Assembly: GCF_046105845.1 (NCBI RefSeq)
Contig: NZ_CP151004.1
Length of the DNA: 64,000 bases
Direction: 5' to 3' (one strand)
Source of the DNA: Escherichia coli
Lineage (GTDB): Bacteria; Pseudomonadota; Gammaproteobacteria; Enterobacterales; Enterobacteriaceae
Position 1 is the first letter of the stretch. Every line of letters starts with the position of its first letter. Both the position numbers and the translations under genes were made by a program. The notes below the pieces were generated by a model. That model had not been told where the DNA came from. It saw only the letters and a program-made list of their open reading frames with translations, and made no database searches. This document shows, in pieces, positions 18,970 to 42,885 of this stretch.

Positions 18970-20649
<1,680 letters not shown>

Positions 20650-21023
20650 TTATCGGGCTTTTCTTTAAGGGTAGTCATTCGCTCCGCCTGGTGGGCGACA
20701 AAGCGTGCGGTGGATCACGTTTATTAACCTGTCAAAAAATATAACGCACTAATATCCATGGAATTTATAAAAATACAGATTTCGTGTTGTTTTTCATTTT
20801 CAGAACATTCAATCCTACTCTCGCCGCAATCATGATATGCCATTCCTGATCTGGATAATAGGCATAGGCTATCTTATTGATAGTTTATATTCATGTAATT
20901 GATTGATTCCTATCAAAAAGCGTATCTCCCTGTTTTTTATGATGGCTTTGTCTCGCAGAGACGTTTGCAGCATTCTGGAAAATTTTCTGGGTCACAATAA
21001 CTCACCACCGTGAGGGAAGAATA

Positions 21024-22421
21024 ATGAAAATGGTCTCACGTATTACCGCGATCGGCCTGGCTGGCGTCGCGATTTGCTATTTAGGGTTATCTGGTTATGT
21101 GTGGTACCACGATAATAAACGCAGTAAACAGGCTGATGTTCAGGCATCTGCTGTCAGTGAAAATAATCAGGTTTTAGGCTTTCTCCGCGAAAAAGGATGC
21201 GACTATTGCCACACGCCTTCGGCAGAATTACCCGCCTATTATTATATTCCTGGCGCGAAACAGTTGATGGATTACGACATTAAGCTCGGATATAAATCTT
21301 TTAACCTCGAGGCCGTGCGTGCGGCTCTGCTGGCTGATAAACCTGTTTCGCAAAGCGATCTGAATAAGATTGAATGGGTGATGCAGTATGAAACTATGCC
21401 ACCAACGCGTTATACCGCGCTACACTGGGCGGGTAAGGTGAGTGATGAAGAGCGGGCGGAAATACTGGCCTGGATTGCAAAACAGCGCGCAGAATATTAC
21501 GCCAGTAATGATACTGCTCCGGAGCATCGCAATGAACCGGTGCAGCCCATCCCGCAAAAACTGCCTACCGATGCGCAAAAAGTGGCGTTGGGCTTTGCGC
21601 TGTATCACGATCCCCGTTTATCGGCTGATAGCACCATTTCATGCGCTCATTGCCATGCGTTGAATGCGGGGGGCGTCGATGGCAGAAAAACATCGATTGG
21701 TGTTGGTGGCGCAGTTGGGCCGATTAACGCGCCGACGGTATTTAACTCAGTATTTAACGTTGAGCAGTTCTGGGATGGTCGTGCGGCAACATTGCAGGAT
21801 CAGGCTGGTGGACCGCCGTTGAACCCGATTGAAATGGCGTCGAAATCCTGGGACGAAATTATTGCTAAGCTGGAAAAAGATCCGCAGCTTAAAGCTCAGT
21901 TCCTCGAAGTCTATCCGCAAGGTTTCAGTGGCGAAAATATTACTGATGCCATTGCTGAATTTGAGAAAACATTAATTACGCCGGATTCCCCATTTGATAA
22001 ATGGTTGCGTGGAGATGAGAATGCGCTGACGGCACAACAGAAAAAAGGCTATCAATTATTTAAAGATAATAAATGTGCAACTTGTCATGGTGGTATTATT
22101 CTCGGCGGACGTTCCTTCGAACCGTTGGGGCTGAAAAAAGACTTTAATTTTGGTGAAATTACGGCGGCGGATATTGGTCGTATGAATGTGACTAAAGAAG
22201 AGCGCGATAAATTGCGTCAGAAAGTACCCGGTTTACGTAACGTTGCACTAACGGCACCGTACTTCCATCGCGGTGATGTGCCGACGCTGGACGGGGCGGT
22301 GAAACTGATGTTGCGCTATCAGGTAGGCAAAGAGCTGCCGCAGGAGGATGTGGATGATATCGTAGCTTTCCTGCACAGTCTGAACGGGGTTTACACGCCG
22401 TATATGCAGGATAAACAATAA
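21024..22421 (+). CDS. yhjA: Membrane-anchored c-type cytochrome peroxidase YhjA with three CXXCH haem motifs
   Basis: 465-aa ORF with N-terminal TM anchor and motifs CDYCH, CAHCH and CATCH. Confidence 0.93.
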   Translation: MKMVSRITAIGLAGVAICYLGLSGYVWYHDNKRSKQADVQASAVSENNQVLGFLREKGCDYCHTPSAELPAYYYIPGAKQLMDYDIKLGYKSFNLEAVRAALLADKPVSQSDLNKIEWVMQYETMPPTRYTALHWAGKVSDEERAEILAWIAKQRAEYYASNDTAPEHRNEPVQPIPQKLPTDAQKVALGFALYHDPRLSADSTISCAHCHALNAGGVDGRKTSIGVGGAVGPINAPTVFNSVFNVEQFWDGRAATLQDQAGGPPLNPIEMASKSWDEIIAKLEKDPQLKAQFLEVYPQGFSGENITDAIAEFEKTLITPDSPFDKWLRGDENALTAQQKKGYQLFKDNKCATCHGGIILGGRSFEPLGLKKDFNFGEITAADIGRMNVTKEERDKLRQKVPGLRNVALTAPYFHRGDVPTLDGAVKLMLRYQVGKELPQEDVDDIVAFLHSLNGVYTPYMQDKQ

Positions 22422-39305: not shown

Positions 39306-40220
39306 TTATTGCGGCCAAAGCTGCTGGTGTAAAGACTCAACGACATCAGCAATACGCGGACCCATTCCCAGAATCAGGTTTTGATCAACGGTGATAATGC
39401 GCTGGTTTTTCCATGCGGCAGTGTGGGTAATTCCGGCAATAGAACGTAGCCGGTTAATATCGCCATCGACCATTTGTGAGGTTACGACAATCACTTCTGG
39501 ATTAGCCGCAATCAGTGATTCTGCACTGTAGCTTTTGTACTGCTGGTGGGTTGCGACGTTTTCTGCTCCGGCAAGCGAAAGAATGGCGTCCGCGACGCTG
39601 CCTTTACCGGCAACCTGTGGCGCACTTCCGCCTGCGGAGAGAATAAACATGGCTTTAACCGGGGCTTTTTTGGCCGCCACGTTTTGCTGTACTCGCTCCA
39701 GGCGTTGGTTGATCTGTGTCACCAGCGCCTCGCCTTGTTCAGGAACCTGTAGCGTTTTTGCCAGTTGGCGAATGTTGGCGTACATCTGCTGAAGGGTGGC
39801 AGGCACACGCGGCAGGGTGACGACGTTGACTTTCTGCGCTCGTAATTGGTCGAGCACAATTTGTGGCCCGGCATCCTGCCAGGTAATTACGCTATCCGGG
39901 CGAAGTGACAAAATGCCTTCGCTGTTGAGTTGTTTCCAGTAGCCAATATGCGGCAGTTTGGCGGTTTCTGGTGGATAAGATGTCGTTTCATCGACACCAA
40001 CCACGCGTTCGCCAGCGCCCATCGCGTAGATTAGCTCCGTCAGCGATCCTCCTGCGACCACGATACGTTCGGCAGCCGTTACGCTAAAAGCCCAGCTAAG
40101 AGCCAGTACTGCCGTAAACAATTTTTTTCGTTTTACCGCGGTCTTCGCGGCAGAGGCCACGGCTGAAATACATAACGTCAGTGGAGAAAAAAGAAACGGC
40201 CTGGTGATGATCCTTGGCAT
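39306..40220 (-). CDS. chuT: Periplasmic haemin-binding protein ChuT (start uncertain)
   Basis: Substrate-binding-protein-like ORF; the longest ORF start (40298) lies upstream of a Fur box, so the ATG at 40220 or a downstream non-ATG start before the signal-like KKLFTAVLALSWAFSVTA is more likely. Confidence 0.8.
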   Translation of the reverse strand: MPRIITRPFLFSPLTLCISAVASAAKTAVKRKKLFTAVLALSWAFSVTAAERIVVAGGSLTELIYAMGAGERVVGVDETTSYPPETAKLPHIGYWKQLNSEGILSLRPDSVITWQDAGPQIVLDQLRAQKVNVVTLPRVPATLQQMYANIRQLAKTLQVPEQGEALVTQINQRLERVQQNVAAKKAPVKAMFILSAGGSAPQVAGKGSVADAILSLAGAENVATHQQYKSYSAESLIAANPEVIVVTSQMVDGDINRLRSIAGITHTAAWKNQRIITVDQNLILGMGPRIADVVESLHQQLWPQ

Positions 40221-40245
40221 AATATGAGAACTCTTATCAAGTTGA

Positions 40246-40264
40246 GAATGATCATGATTATCAT
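40246..40264. promoter_or_regulatory. Fur box at the chuT(WXYUV) promoter
   Basis: gaatgatcatgattatcat closely matches the Fur consensus gataatgataatcattatc. Confidence 0.65.
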
Positions 40265-40594
40265 TTGAGTTATATATGAAATACAACCGTCGATTCAATA
40301 CGCACGGCGTTACAAGCGTATTTATTTTTGATTTTTATCAAGATGCTTCGTCAGCTAACGTTCTTGTTACCGACTAAATTTCAGCGCGGGAAAAAGCTGA
40401 GAACCCAGAGATATCGAGGCTTGCAGAGCAAAGCGAAGAGAAAATTATCACTGTTAACGACAAAGTTTAGTGATGAGGTCATGGGGGAATAACCATAAAA
40501 ATAAAGTGGTTTTCAGGGCGCGGGATAGGTTTCATAACCCCCTGTTTATTGTGTTAATGGCGGTTAAAAAAAGCTTGATCATAAAAAATTGATC

Positions 40595-40613
40595 GATAAT
40601 AATTCTCATTATC
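40595..40613. promoter_or_regulatory. Fur box at the chuA promoter
   Basis: gataataattctcattatc matches 15 of 19 consensus positions; about 290 bp upstream of the chuA ATG, implying a long 5' leader. Confidence 0.65.
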
Positions 40614-40881
40614 ACATTTGCGCTTAACAAAACACGACCATATGGATAACAAAACCATAGCATTTGCAAGGGATAACGCACAGCGCTCTTCACTCCTGAT
40701 GGGGCATATCGTTTTGCCTGACAAAGAGGGCGTGCTTTTGCGTATTTGCCGAGATACCAGGCAATTTCATGGGATATAAACGCCTGTAAACTCACCCGGC
40801 GAATATTATCGCCCTGAATTTTAAATAAATTTATTTTTCGCCAGCCACCCCGGTATTAACCCAGGCAGCCAGCATTTTTTA

Positions 40882-40896
40882 TTTTCCTCATGGAGA
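40882..40896 (+). promoter_or_regulatory. U-rich/SD hairpin in the chuA leader (candidate FourU-type RNA thermometer)
   Basis: ttttcc tcat ggaga: the U-rich tract can pair with the GGAG Shine-Dalgarno just 5' of the ATG. Confidence 0.4.
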
Positions 40897-40902
40897 ATCG
40901 CT

Positions 40903-42885
40903 ATGTCACGTCCGCAATTTACCTCGTTGCGTTTGAGTTTGTTGGCTTTGGCTGTTTCTGCCACCTTGCCAACGTTTGCTTTTGCTACTGAAACCATGAC
41001 CGTTACGGCAACGGGGAATGCCCGTAGTTCCTTCGAAGCGCCTATGATGGTCAGCGTCATCGACACTTCCGCTCCTGAAAATCAAACGGCTACTTCAGCC
41101 ACCGATCTGCTGCGTCATGTTCCTGGAATTACTCTTGATGGTACCGGACGAACCAACGGTCAGGATGTAAATATGCGTGGCTATGATCATCGCGGCGTGC
41201 TGGTTCTTGTCGATGGTGTTCGCCAGGGAACGGATACCGGACACCTGAATGGTACTTTTCTTGATCCGGCGCTGATCAAGCGTGTTGAGATTGTTCGCGG
41301 ACCTTCAGCATTACTGTATGGCAGTGGCGCGCTGGGTGGGGTGATCTCCTACGATACGGTCGATGCAAAAGATTTATTGCAGGAAGGACAAAGTAGTGGT
41401 TTTCGTGTCTTTGGTACTGGCGGCACGGGGGACCATAGCCTGGGATTAGGCGCGAGCGCGTTTGGACGAACTGAAAATCTGGATGGTATTGTGGCCTGGT
41501 CCAGTCGCGATCGGGGTGATTTACGCCAGAGCAATGATGAAACCGCGCCGAATGACGAGTCCATTAATAACATGCTGGCGAAAGGGACCTGGCAAATTGA
41601 TTCAGCCCAGTCTCTGAGCGGTTTAGTGCGTTACTACAACAACGACGCGCGTGAACCAAAAAATCCGCAGACCGTTGAAGCTTCTGATAGCAGCAACCCG
41701 ATGGTTGATCGTTCAACAATTCAACGCGATGTGCAGCTTTCTTATAAACTCGCCCCGCAGGGCAACGACTGGTTAAATGCAGATGCAAAAATTTACTGGT
41801 CGGAAGTCCGTATTAATGCGCAAAACACGGGGAGTTCCGGCGAGTATCGTGAACAGATAACAAAAGGAGCCAGGCTGGAGAACCGTTCCACTCTATTTGC
41901 CGACAGTTTCGCTTCTCACTTACTGACATATGGCGGTGAGTATTATCGTCAGGAACAACATCCGGGCGGCGCGACGACGGGCTTCCCGCAAGCAAAAATC
42001 GATTTTAGCTCTGGCTGGCTACAGGATGAGATCACCTTACGCGATCTGCCGATTACCCTGCTTGGCGGAACCCGCTATGACAGTTATCGCGGTAGCAGCG
42101 ACGGCTACAAAGATGTTGATGCTGACAAATGGTCATCTCGTGCGGGGATGACTATCAACCCGACCAACTGGCTGATGTTATTTGGCTCATATGCCCAGGC
42201 ATTCCGCGCCCCGACGATGGGCGAAATGTATAACGATTCTAAGCACTTCTCGATTGGTCGCTTCTATACCAACTATTGGGTGCCAAACCCGAACTTACGT
42301 CCGGAAACTAACGAAACTCAGGAGTACGGTTTTGGGCTGCGTTTTGATGACCTGATGTTGTCCAATGATGCCCTGGAATTTAAAGCCAGCTACTTTGATA
42401 CCAAAGCGAAGGATTACATCTCCACGACCGTCGATTTCGCGGCGGCGACAACTATGTCGTATAACGTCCCGAACGCCAAAATCTGGGGTTGGGATGTGAT
42501 GACGAAATATACCACTGATCTGTTTAGCCTTGATGTGGCCTATAACCGTACCCGCGGCAAAGACACCGATACCGGCGAATATATCTCCAGTATTAACCCG
42601 GATACCGTTACCAGCACCCTGAATATTCCGATCGCTCACAGTGGCTTCTCTGTTGGGTGGGTTGGTACGTTTGCCGATCGCTCAACACATATCAGCAGCA
42701 GTTACAGCAAACAACCAGGCTATGGCGTGAATGATTTCTACGTCAGTTATCAAGGACAACAGGCGCTCAAAGGTATGACCACTACTTTGGTGTTGGGTAA
42801 CGCTTTCGACAAAGAGTACTGGTCGCCACAAGGCATCCCACAGGATGGTCGTAATGGAAAAATTTTCGTGAGTTATCAATGGTAA
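40903..42885 (+). CDS. chuA: TonB-dependent outer-membrane haem/haemoglobin receptor ChuA
   Basis: 660-aa ORF with signal peptide, TonB-box-like region (ETMTVTAT) and aromatic C-terminus ending ...VSYQW. Confidence 0.95.
   Translation: MSRPQFTSLRLSLLALAVSATLPTFAFATETMTVTATGNARSSFEAPMMVSVIDTSAPENQTATSATDLLRHVPGITLDGTGRTNGQDVNMRGYDHRGVLVLVDGVRQGTDTGHLNGTFLDPALIKRVEIVRGPSALLYGSGALGGVISYDTVDAKDLLQEGQSSGFRVFGTGGTGDHSLGLGASAFGRTENLDGIVAWSSRDRGDLRQSNDETAPNDESINNMLAKGTWQIDSAQSLSGLVRYYNNDAREPKNPQTVEASDSSNPMVDRSTIQRDVQLSYKLAPQGNDWLNADAKIYWSEVRINAQNTGSSGEYREQITKGARLENRSTLFADSFASHLLTYGGEYYRQEQHPGGATTGFPQAKIDFSSGWLQDEITLRDLPITLLGGTRYDSYRGSSDGYKDVDADKWSSRAGMTINPTNWLMLFGSYAQAFRAPTMGEMYNDSKHFSIGRFYTNYWVPNPNLRPETNETQEYGFGLRFDDLMLSNDALEFKASYFDTKAKDYISTTVDFAAATTMSYNVPNAKIWGWDVMTKYTTDLFSLDVAYNRTRGKDTDTGEYISSINPDTVTSTLNIPIAHSGFSVGWVGTFADRSTHISSSYSKQPGYGVNDFYVSYQGQQALKGMTTTLVLGNAFDKEYWSPQGIPQDGRNGKIFVSYQW

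Follow-up and report, generated by a model that had tools for sequence, protein, structure and literature searches.

Introduction

The haem-uptake loci of Escherichia coli (chu) and Shigella (shu) are well studied for their layered control by iron and temperature. A FourU RNA thermometer was described in the leader of the receptor gene (Kouse et al., 2013), is represented in Rfam as the shuA/chuA thermoregulator RF02597, and has been subjected to mutagenesis at the −19 U and −17 C bases (PMC3660397). Iron- and Fur-dependent repression has also been reported (PMC5458455, PMC7157518). Specifically, the divergent promoters are Fur-repressed (Wei et al., 2017; PMC5458455), chuAS and chuTWXYU belong to the direct Fur regulon (Banerjee et al., 2020; PMC7157518), and PMC9002310 further cites Torres and Payne (1997) for Fur repression. 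On the chuT side, mapping in S. dysenteriae placed the shuT transcription start site (TSS) 42 nt 5' of the ATG, with a Fur box at +1 to +19 and a second thermometer that was mutated at U15/U16 (Wei et al., 2017; PMC5458455).

Published inputs on the chuA leader comprise CyaR, Hfq/RyhB/Esr41, and Rho. Sy and Tree (2022; PMC9002310) described a 291-nt leader subject to CyaR and Rho, with a Term-seq 3' end at +129 and a region, +177 to +217, that confers ~9-fold repression and is needed for Rho termination at +271. These authors also inferred an unidentified repressive element that is relieved by CyaR. A FourU-like hairpin 5' of Yersinia hemR1 confers no thermoregulation (PMC6158557), and architecture alone is therefore no proof of function.

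Here, we analyzed a 64-kb stretch of E. coli DNA (hereafter, the window), within which a 682-bp interval separates chuT from chuA. This interval very probably serves the E. coli haem-uptake locus as its divergent control region and works as published, which amounts to textbook-level control of a virulence-associated haem receptor by both iron and temperature. A preliminary description of the interval, made from the sequence, is supported in its main finding. That finding is already known, since the Fur boxes, the thermometer, and the long leader are all in published work, and it adds nothing new. What is possibly new is the leader as the wreck of a hemP gene, an ancient conserved leader motif, and an FNR site beside chuT. 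Sequence features, their uniqueness in the window, conservation, and Rfam family membership were computed here; Fur dependence, temperature dependence, start sites, and the effects of CyaR and Rho are taken from the literature.

Fur Boxes and Divergent Promoters

The identities of the two genes given in the preliminary description agree with RefSeq gene calls. The coding sequences and the elements that govern their transcription are as follows.

39306–40220, minus strand: chuT/shuT, encoding a periplasmic haem-binding protein; RefSeq annotation carried over from NZ_CP023353
40903–42885, plus strand: chuA coding sequence (TonB-dependent haem receptor), RefSeq
40244–40262, no strand assigned: chuT-side Fur box, 16/19 (3 mismatches), +1 to +19 of the chuT transcript
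40595–40613, no strand assigned: chuA-side Fur box, 16–17/19 (3 mismatches on the plus strand, 2 on the minus strand), overlapping the −10 and the TSS
40269–40298, minus strand: chuT promoter, −35 TTGAAT (40298–40293), 18-bp spacer, −10 TATAAC (40274–40269)
40575–40603, plus strand: chuA promoter, −35 TTGATC, 17-bp spacer, −10 AATAAT (promoter scan)
40221–40262, minus strand: chuT 42-nt 5' untranslated region (UTR), the published shuT RNA thermometer (hsp17-like single stem-loop; PMC5458455)
40612–40902, plus strand: chuA 291-nt leader, TSS from enterohemorrhagic E. coli (EHEC) dRNA-seq (PMC9002310)

Both strands of the window were searched with a 19-bp Fur consensus (GATAATGATAATCATTATC), allowing at most three mismatches. 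Exactly two matches were found in the 64 kb, at 40244–40262 and 40595–40613, while 100 dinucleotide shuffles yielded none (0 expected by chance). The chuA-side box had been placed exactly in the preliminary description; the chuT-side box, given there as 40246–40264, was 2 bp off the best match. A weaker match, shifted by 6 bp, overlaps the chuT-side box. The chuT-side box is nearly invariant in Escherichia, with one T-to-A change confined to E. albertii, and it sits within the transcript rather than over the chuT promoter. The chuA-side box spans the predicted −10 as well as the TSS, as indicated both by the promoter scan and by PMC9002310. Most of ~75 orthologous loci have an equivalent Fur box 300–320 nt 5' of the start codon of the receptor gene; in a few loci with insertions it lies further upstream.

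The scan predicts a chuA TSS at ~40610–40612, inside the Fur box, in agreement with leaders of 291 and 293 nt. The distance from this box to the ATG had been estimated at about 290 bp (40903 − 40613 = 290), and the long leader that this implied is borne out by dRNA-seq (291 nt; PMC9002310) and by the cloned leader (293 nt; PMC3660397). When iron is available, Fur on the box at the chuA −10 and start site and on the chuT box at +1 to +19 would shut both promoters; when it is not, chuA would be transcribed with its 291-nt leader.

The chuT promoter was read from the sequence, anchored on the TSS of PMC5458455, and agrees with the 36-nt promoter span reported there. The annotated start of chuT is the ATG at 40220, which yields an N-terminus with a typical Sec-type signal peptide (MPRIITRPFLFSPLTLCISAVASA-A). 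The longest reading frame would begin at a TTG at 40298, a start that the preliminary description had argued against. That rejection is correct, as the published shuT TSS corresponds to 40262 and the TTG is upstream of it. The chuT −35 hexamer opens with this same TTG, a point that had been overlooked, as had the thermometer of chuT itself. When the UTR and AUG of the window are folded, one stem-loop with weak pairs and an internal loop is obtained in which U15/U16 pair with AGAG of the Shine-Dalgarno sequence (SD; −5.8 kcal/mol); inclusion of 12 more coding nucleotides changes the minimum free energy (MFE) structure, which is then no better than shuffles (z +0.97). The 42-nt chuT leader may fold into a second, different thermometer.

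The chuA Thermometer

40881–40898, plus strand: FourU hairpin, 5' arm AUUUUCC (40881–40887), loop UCAU, 3' arm GGAGAAU (40892–40898), SD GGAG at 40892–40895

At all temperatures tested, the hairpin AUUUUCC-UCAU-GGAGAAU is the MFE structure (−6.1 kcal/mol at 37°C). Within it, U40882–U40885 pair with A40897, A40896, G40895, and A40894, and the GGAG lies 7 nt from the AUG. Its energy is unexceptional relative to shuffles (z −0.87), and its identity is settled not by fold energy but by a match of RF02597 to positions 40874–40905 (60.1 bits, gathering score 58, E = 3.2e-8, 32/32 identical to the consensus). The proposal that a FourU hairpin occludes the GGAG is supported by family membership and by published mutagenesis of the same bases, which are 40884 (−19 U) and 40886 (−17 C) in the window (PMC3660397). 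Folding at 25 versus 37°C, which had been suggested as a check, reproduced the hairpin with its SD; it did not reproduce the opening. Predicted pairing of the SD in nearest-neighbor folding exceeds 99% from 20 to 45°C, even as the free energy of the hairpin shifts from −8.4 (25°C) to −6.1 kcal/mol (37°C), and the comparison is uninformative because the SD stays >99% paired at both temperatures. Temperature-dependent translation has been demonstrated by experiment for the identical sequence (PMC3660397, PMC9002310). In the proposed mechanism, the four U (40882–40885) and two C would pair with GGAGAAU in the last 22 nt of the leader, such that the ribosome-binding site would be hidden at ~25°C and open at 37°C.

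Of 2235 chu-positive E. coli genomes, 2184 carry the 81 nt from 40831 to 40911 at 99% identity or more, a band below which a single mismatch would fall. Over the whole intergenic region, the E. coli allele classes are only ~89% alike. The leader of the window is of the EHEC type, with ~96% identity to that of O157 and zero indels relative to it.

Two candidate helices occur within 40866–40908: the proximal hairpin and a distal AGCAUUUUUUA/UGGAGAAUCGCU helix. RNAalifold did not recover an SD helix from a 55-sequence alignment, because the U-tract columns are gappy, and the SD helix was therefore counted by hand across genera. Weak Rfam matches elsewhere (Hammerhead_HH9 at 40092–40167, E = 0.11; a snoRNA; and others) were taken as chance.

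The Upstream Leader and the Position of hemP

40642–40779, plus strand: 45-codon open reading frame (ORF) at the hemP position of other genera (candidate relic), start context ATGGATAAC shared
40715–40741, plus strand: mid-leader hairpin and U-tract (terminator-like in the scan), coinciding with the published 3' end at +129
40788–40828, plus strand: +177 to +217 region, coordinates mapped from PMC9002310
40840–40873, plus strand: HPRE-like bipartite GCCAGCC-N19-CAGCCAGC motif, with one occurrence in the window against 0 expected
40865–40878, plus strand: predicted CyaR pairing core GCAGCCAGCAUUUU (RNAduplex with CyaR nt 20–33)

The mid-leader hairpin is an invariant island between E. coli allele classes. 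The +177 to +217 region begins 9 nt past the stop codon of the 45-codon ORF. Pairing of the last 80 nt of the leader with the 5' part of CyaR, whose sequence was verified as RF00112, places the predicted core 14 nt 5' of the SD, which fits the "about 15 nt" given in PMC9002310. The published inputs from CyaR, Hfq/RyhB/Esr41, and Rho were not part of the preliminary description. Taken together with the thermometer, they would have CyaR pair immediately 5' of the hairpin, RyhB/Esr41 act on the ribosome-binding site, and Rho terminate transcription prematurely at +271.

We compared the leader with ~75 Enterobacteriaceae loci from more than 15 genera. Where E. coli has the leader, ~70 of ~73 non-Escherichia loci carry an ORF ending in GKLILTK before its stop codon, and two representatives of these match the Pfam hemP family PF10636 (E = 2.6e-17 and 1.2e-16; 60–63 bits). 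This hemP ORF is missing from all seven Escherichia alleles examined. In five of the alleles, an ATG is retained at the matching position within a common ATGGATAAC-type context, and in one this codon is GTG. Downstream of the Fur-regulated promoter and ahead of the receptor gene lies a short ORF at the same promoter distance and with the same start context; the Escherichia ORFs end at different points (45, 53, 40, and 34 codons). Searches of E. coli leader ORFs against the Pfam and NCBIfam hemP models returned no match at E up to 10. The leader ORF is therefore not a HemP protein, and only descent is proposed. We also rejected the leader ORF as a conserved micro-protein, given that frames and ends differ between lineages and that substitutions are mostly non-synonymous.

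In the alignment of the leaders, no columns are more conserved than those of the GCCAGCC (40840–40846) and CAGCCAGC (40866–40873) halves. The bipartite motif was found once each in 67 of 87 loci, on the plus strand and, in those checked, with its end ~30 nt 5' of the receptor ATG, including in genera whose receptor is only 57–59% identical.

A Candidate FNR Site Beside chuT

40328–40341, no strand assigned: perfect FNR consensus TTGAT-N4-ATCAA (candidate), centered at about −72.5 from the chuT TSS

Activating positions for FNR are −41.5 or about −61.5, −71.5, and −82.5. The site at 40328–40341 is one of two perfect FNR sites in the 64 kb. The other is intergenic, with TreF on one side and a di-haem peroxidase-family ORF of 465 aa on the other; we take this ORF to be yhjA, a known FNR/OxyR target. 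The chuT-side site lies inside an island (40325–40360) that is invariant in E. coli, E. albertii, and two divergent Escherichia lineages, with flanks that diverge. Matches with at most one mismatch number 8 in the window versus 3 expected, a modest enrichment. In avian pathogenic E. coli (APEC), loss of FNR lowered chuA-lacZ expression and FNR shifted a "chuA promoter" fragment (PMC5481319). Neither the window nor any of the compared loci contains the chuA FNR site predicted in the APEC study (TTGTAATGTTTCAA).

Alternative Readings of the Leader and the FNR Site

The long chuA/shuA leader may be the decayed remnant of hemP, as found in the hemP-hemR arrangement of Yersinia, Enterobacter, and Citrobacter. 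This origin would complement published control rather than compete with it, and we consider it on balance slightly probable. Under it, the promoter and Fur box would be those of hemP, the thermometer and the conserved 70 nt would be the old hemP-hemR intergenic region, and Rho termination in the leader would be an ordinary polarity effect in a region that has lost its translation. The conserved distance of the Fur box from the receptor ATG and the shared position and start context of the ORF argue for such descent, as does a hand count in which substitutions between the window and B2 alleles within the ORF are almost all non-synonymous. The ORF stop (40777–40779, ~+166 to +168) also falls just 5' of the region required by Rho. 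In anchored global alignments, Escherichia and hemP intervals are 50–53% identical (z 2.2–5.1), and 0 of 500 shuffles reach the alignment score for most pairs, although the shuffles behind the best z values keep mononucleotide composition only and the compared loci are mutually related. Standard homology tools, however, are non-significant: in addition to the failed profile searches of the ORFs, hhalign gave a P of 0.15, the HemP profile scored ~0 bits in all frames (the Escherichia consensus was also non-significant), nhmmer in both directions gave E = 0.72 and 0.46, though both at the right place, tblastn returned noise only, and a blastn search of 5426 E. coli genomes with Enterobacter hemP was likewise non-significant. 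Furthermore, the shu locus is described as having no hemP homolog (PMC6158557), and hemP could instead have been replaced by unrelated DNA of similar length. Descent from hemP is therefore kept as a hypothesis based on position and anchored alignment, with weak residual similarity. If true, it would explain in evolutionary terms why the leader is 291 nt long and sensitive to Rho, and would account likewise for the repressive element left unexplained in 2022.

HmuP-responsive elements (HPREs), which go with the small regulators HemP/HmuP/ChuP, have been described in the leaders of haem-receptor genes of alpha- and beta-proteobacteria. The invariant block GCCAGCCACCCC…CAGGCAGCCAGC (40838–40873) might be the enterobacterial counterpart, with the HemP-family protein YdiE as the candidate trans factor in E. 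coli and with the block itself perhaps the repressive element that CyaR overcomes (Sy and Tree, 2022), a suggestion that we regard as rather unlikely. It draws on the uniqueness and breadth of the bipartite motif, on its co-occurrence with hemP in non-Escherichia loci, on overlap of the predicted CyaR core with its second half, and on the match of YdiE (PDB 4ynx) to the HemP profile (E = 6.5e-21). The motif also resembles the Chromobacterium violaceum chuR HPRE CCCGCAAGCCAGCCGACAGCCAGCCAGCG, located 26 nt from the ATG (PMC9131926), although this comparison involves two sequences quoted outside the HPRE consensus paper (Amarelle et al., 2019). On the other hand, the role of HemP or YdiE at chuA is a proposal only, the motif halves are almost without informative covariation (60% of cells paired, with a single compensatory pair among 4 related sequences), and the conservation could stem solely from CyaR pairing, from a rut site, or from ribosome standby. 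If true, HPRE-like motifs would extend to gamma-proteobacteria, and YdiE/HemP would be a candidate for the missing factor. The SD-proximal hairpin might, in turn, be generic weak structure with no sensing role, like its Yersinia hemR1 look-alike, and its ordinary energy and the lack of predicted melting between 25 and 37°C would fit this. Such an account is highly improbable given that the identical sequence was tested by stabilizing and destabilizing point mutations in S. dysenteriae, uropathogenic E. coli, and EHEC, and that it is near-invariant across the chu-positive genomes. As for the chuT side, the perfect FNR box could render chuTWXYUV, which encodes the anaerobic haem-degradation enzymes ChuW, ChuX, and ChuY, responsive to oxygen, with FNR as a class I-type activator from about −72; we judge this plausible but somewhat short of likely. 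The perfect match, its only counterpart in the window beside the yhjA-like ORF, the invariant island with its diverging flanks, the APEC expression and shift data, and the annotated operon products all point toward it. Against it, the center, as measured from the TSS mapped in S. dysenteriae, is 1 bp off the classical −71.5, conservation within E. coli is good across the entire chuT-side half of the intergenic region, near-matches are only modestly enriched, and the APEC study predicted a different site. If true, the operon for anaerobic haem degradation would be under oxygen control.

Collectively, these readings can be joined in a tentative account, which we hold to be possible yet less than even. 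The chuA leader would be a hemP gene that decayed in an Escherichia ancestor, its invariant 3' end would keep an ancient, HPRE-like bipartite element, common to hemP-hemR operons in many genera, that may now be read by CyaR and possibly by the trans-encoded HemP paralog YdiE, Rho termination and the +177 to +217 repression would represent polarity on an ex-coding region, and the perfect FNR site would tie chuTWXY to oxygen.

Comparison With Known Systems

The window shares with RF02597 and the system of Kouse et al. (2013) the same hairpin, SD, AUG spacing, and long leader, and no difference was found for E. coli. Among 20 other genera scanned, in contrast, only E. albertii reaches the gathering score; in the other genera, GGAG(AG) is still sequestered, mostly by a distal CUUUUC tract beside the CAGCCAGC block. 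Likewise, the shuT system (Wei, Kouse and Murphy, 2017) is matched in leader length (42 nt), in a Fur box at +1 to +19 that has 3 mismatches, and in U15/U16 lying opposite the SD. It differs in that the window carries a minority single-nucleotide variant (G at 40241, equal to C22 in the loop) and in that the published mapping was conducted in S. dysenteriae. With respect to the layered regulation by CyaR, ChiX, Rho, and Hfq (Sy and Tree, 2022), the window has the same leader length and EHEC-type sequence. What is added here is that the +177 to +217 rut/repressor region starts just past the stop of an ORF at the hemP position. Finally, the hemP-hemR operons (hemPRSTUV/hmuP'RSTUV) found in Yersinia and further Enterobacteriaceae resemble this locus in having a Fur-controlled promoter ~300 nt 5' of the receptor and, in the last ~70 nt, a C/A-rich bipartite motif and an SD hairpin. 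They differ in that E. coli has no recognizable HemP ORF at that place and in that the Escherichia chuT-chuV genes are inverted and divergent, an arrangement that brings a second Fur box and the FNR box to the locus.

The chuT-chuA Control Region and Its Promoters

The reading of the DNA between the divergent haem-uptake genes chuT and chuA (40221-40902) as their control region is supported. Published experiments have already taken this region apart, and Rfam carries a family for it (RF02597), so it is already known. What may be new, all of it put forward as hypothesis, is limited to a relic of hemP (the gene for a small regulator of the HemP/HmuP family) in the chuA leader, a motif resembling a HmuP-responsive element (HPRE), and an FNR box near chuT. 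The locus DNA was found in 2,236 of 5,426 complete E. coli genomes, and its RefSeq-annotated homolog is 99.3% identical across 3.9 kb. Flanking genes are hutW, hutX, chuY, and chuU on one side and chuS, dctR, and slp on the other.

39306-40220, - strand, chuT/shuT (RefSeq annotation of homologous DNA)
40903-42885, + strand, chuA (RefSeq annotation of homologous DNA)
40575-40603, + strand, chuA promoter TTGATC-17-AATAAT (promoter scan)
40298-40293 and 40274-40269, - strand, chuT promoter, -35 TTGAAT and -10 TATAAC (read from the sequence)

With up to three mismatches allowed, the 19-bp Fur consensus matched only two sites in the 64-kb window, at 40244-40262 and 40595-40613, and none in 100 shuffles. 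The preliminary description had placed the chuA-side box exactly; its chuT-side box exists, although the best placement is 2 bp further left than the 40246-40264 proposed. The functional shuT Fur box, with three mismatches, was reported at +1 to +19 (window 40262-40244; Wei et al., 2017, PMC5458455). It thus sits in the transcribed region and not over the promoter, a point that had been missed or slightly misstated. Among the direct targets of Fur listed for UPEC are chuAS and chuTWXYU (Banerjee et al., 2020, PMC7157518). The chuA start site implied by the promoter scan falls within the Fur box, consistent with the published mapping in EHEC, 291 nt 5' of the ATG (window ~40612; Sy and Tree, 2022, PMC9002310). 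The ~40 bp 5' of the chuA -35 (40536-40574, TAACCCCCTGTTTATTGTGTTAATGGCGGTTAAAAAAAG) are nearly invariant across Escherichia species.

The suggestion that TTG 40298 is an unlikely chuT start holds on grounds beyond the Fur box that had been invoked for it. The shuT start site was mapped 42 nt 5' of the ATG (window 40262; PMC5458455), and the TTG lies upstream of it, forming the first three bases of the -35 hexamer TTGAAT; a start at ATG 40220 yields a normal signal peptide.

Within E. coli, the intergenic region comprises two allele classes that are mutually only ~89% alike, and 1,229 of the 2,236 genomes fall in the 80-90% identity band relative to the window. The differences cluster in the central part of the chuA leader (~40616-40825). 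Five representative alleles show no variation in either Fur box, in the chuT leader, or over the final ~80 nt before chuA, and the 81 nt at 40831-40911 are at least 99% identical in 2,184 of 2,235 genomes.

RNA Thermometers in Both Leaders

The proposal that a hairpin of the FourU thermometer type sequesters the chuA Shine-Dalgarno (SD) sequence is borne out. Minimum-free-energy folding of the region gives the AUUUUCC/UCAU/GGAGAAU hairpin at 40881-40898 (-6.1 kcal/mol; not unusual relative to shuffles, z -0.87), and RF02597, the shuA/chuA thermoregulator family, matches 40874-40905 with 60.1 bits (gathering score 58) and all 32 positions equal to the consensus. The hairpin of S. dysenteriae shuA and UPEC chuA is a FourU RNA thermometer, studied in a cloned 293-nt leader (Kouse et al., 2013, PMC3660397). 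Point mutations in that study, at U -19 and C -17 from the AUG, correspond to window 40884 and 40886 and coincide exactly with paired bases of the window hairpin. Folding at different temperatures, suggested earlier as a check, was non-discriminating, with the modeled SD >99% paired from 20 to 45 °C.

Additional layers of control have been reported for this leader, including activation by CyaR pairing ~15 nt upstream of the SD, 3' ends at +129, +271, and +297, and premature Rho termination at +271 that requires +177 to +217 (PMC9002310). Although the mid-leader mostly diverges, it contains an island, 40715-40741, that is its best-conserved part and comprises a hairpin and UGCUUUUGCG; the island ends at the Term-seq 3' end at +129 and is aligned with the LLGEEG codons of hemP.

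The chuT leader has its own thermometer, which the preliminary description overlooked. The 42-nt shuT leader is an hsp17-type RNA thermometer destabilized by changes at U15 and U16 (PMC5458455). Both residues are present in the window and pair with the SD AGAG in a fold of the UTR and AUG. One divergent Escherichia allele carries a 1-nt insertion between the chuT ATG and the Fur box. The G at 40241 (C22, in the thermometer loop) is a minority allele, this position being A in four other aligned E. coli alleles and three other Escherichia lineages.

SD pairing was predicted in 53 of 55 distinct orthologous sequences, most of which use a distal tract (AGCGCUUUUCA versus UGGAGAGUUGCU). Pairing in this distal helix holds for 86.8% of cells, compared to ~50% in slid controls, with a compensatory C-G to U-A change seen in Escherichia and at three other loci. 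In E. coli, the proximal, experimentally validated hairpin is favored over the distal one (-6.1 versus -2.1 kcal/mol). Among the 20 genera scanned, only E. albertii reached the RF02597 threshold. Because a look-alike hairpin of Yersinia hemR1 is not thermoresponsive (PMC6158557), the FourU class should not be widened to other genera without experiments.

A Possible hemP Relic in the chuA Leader

A scan for ChuA orthologs (one genome per species) yielded 80 loci from >15 enterobacterial genera. In most, a Fur box lies 300-320 nt 5' of the receptor ATG (-308 in E. coli). Alignment of the leaders revealed that genera other than Escherichia have a gene in this interval, with an ORF that has a common C-terminal ending; representatives match Pfam hemP (PF10636; E 2.6e-17). 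HemP is absent from all seven Escherichia alleles compared (window, O157, B2, E. albertii, and three divergent lineages), and the shu locus has been described as having no hemP homolog (PMC6158557). An ATG is nevertheless kept at the hemP start position and context (ATGGATAAC type; window 40642) in five of the seven, and the ORFs that begin there have stops that differ between lineages.

40642-40779, 45-codon ORF starting at ATGGATAAC, the hemP start position of other Enterobacteriaceae

This ORF is not recognizable as a HemP protein, and homology of the E. coli interval to hemP is undetectable by standard tests. Since sequence of clear homology flanks the interval on both sides, anchored global alignment was applied; it gave 50-53% identity to hemP intervals (z 2.2-5.1 versus shuffles), with collinear matches at the start, the LLGEEG codons (AAAGAGGGC versus GAAGAGGGC), and the stop region (CCTGA…AAATAA). 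In-situ decay of hemP is considered slightly more likely than not as the origin of the E. coli interval. The stop codon of the putative relic is at 40777-40779, and the +177 to +217 segment starts 9 nt after it. If hemP did decay here, Rho termination and the 9-fold repressive +177 to +217 segment would represent ordinary polarity.

Leader length varies elsewhere. In five Buttiauxella loci (L042, L045, L046, L054, and L073), an additional 100-200 nt separates hemP from the receptor gene; the Fur box is found at -420 to -515, and the last 70 nt remain conserved. Escherichia sp. MOD1-EC7003 (L007, ~2180-2310) has a ~130-nt ERIC/IRU-like insertion in the chuA leader that moves the Fur box to -438, and chuT was not found within 2.5 kb upstream. 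In E. coli WP4-S17-ESBL-03 (L006, 2913-3700), IS26 breaks the intergenic region after 412 nt, and partial rlmJ and gorA stand in place of the lost chuA.

A Candidate FNR Box Near chuT

A perfect FNR consensus, TTGATTTTTATCAA, is present at 40328-40341, centered 72.5 bp 5' of the chuT start site. The surrounding island (40325-40360), unlike its diverging flanks, is invariant in two divergent Escherichia lineages as well as in E. coli and E. albertii; the adjoining GATGCTTCGTCAGCTAAC is likewise invariant. Just one further perfect site occurs in the window, at 20903-20916, in the intergenic region between the two neighbors listed here; it can be taken as a positive control for the pattern.

18970-20619, - strand, TreF
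21024-22421, + strand, 465-aa di-haem peroxidase-family ORF

By position and family match, the latter is taken to be yhjA, a published FNR/OxyR target. The chuT operon is annotated as encoding anaerobic haem-degradation enzymes. In APEC, chuA expression was reported to be FNR-dependent and FNR to bind a 'chuA promoter' fragment (PMC5481319); the FNR site predicted in that study was not found in any locus examined. The candidate box upstream of chuT is a reasonable lead. Two Pseudocitrobacter loci (L011 and L068) have perfect FNR-type palindromes (TTGATACATATCAA and TTGATACAAATCAA) at -332 from the receptor ATG, overlapping the -35 region of the hemP promoter, which may be due to chance.

A Bipartite HPRE-like Motif

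The best-conserved part of the compared leaders is not the 5' arm of the thermometer but a bipartite motif, GCCAGCCACCCC-N-CCCAGGCAGCCAGC in the window. The pattern GCCAGCC-N10-30-CAGCCAGC has a single match in the window (40840-40873; 0 expected) and occurs once each, on the + strand, in 67 of 87 loci, including genera with a receptor only 57-59% identical. In loci checked, it ends ~30 nt 5' of the receptor ATG. With the CyaR sequence confirmed as RF00112, the predicted CyaR pairing core (40865-40878) corresponds to the second motif half, in agreement with the published position. The halves are also predicted to be capable of forming an imperfect hairpin of G-C doublets split by A/C mismatches, for which covariation is uninformative because the columns hardly vary. 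In a single lineage, E. albertii (L051, 2440-2470, versus 40838-40873), opposed A/C mismatch positions of this putative hairpin are jointly changed to G/U.

YdiE (PDB 4ynx), encoded elsewhere in E. coli, matches the HemP profile (E 6.5e-21), and a trans-acting reader of the motif is therefore conceivable. The GCCAGCC…CAGCCAGC motif is similar to the HPRE of C. violaceum chuR, CCCGCAAGCCAGCCGACAGCCAGCCAGCG, as quoted in PMC9131926.
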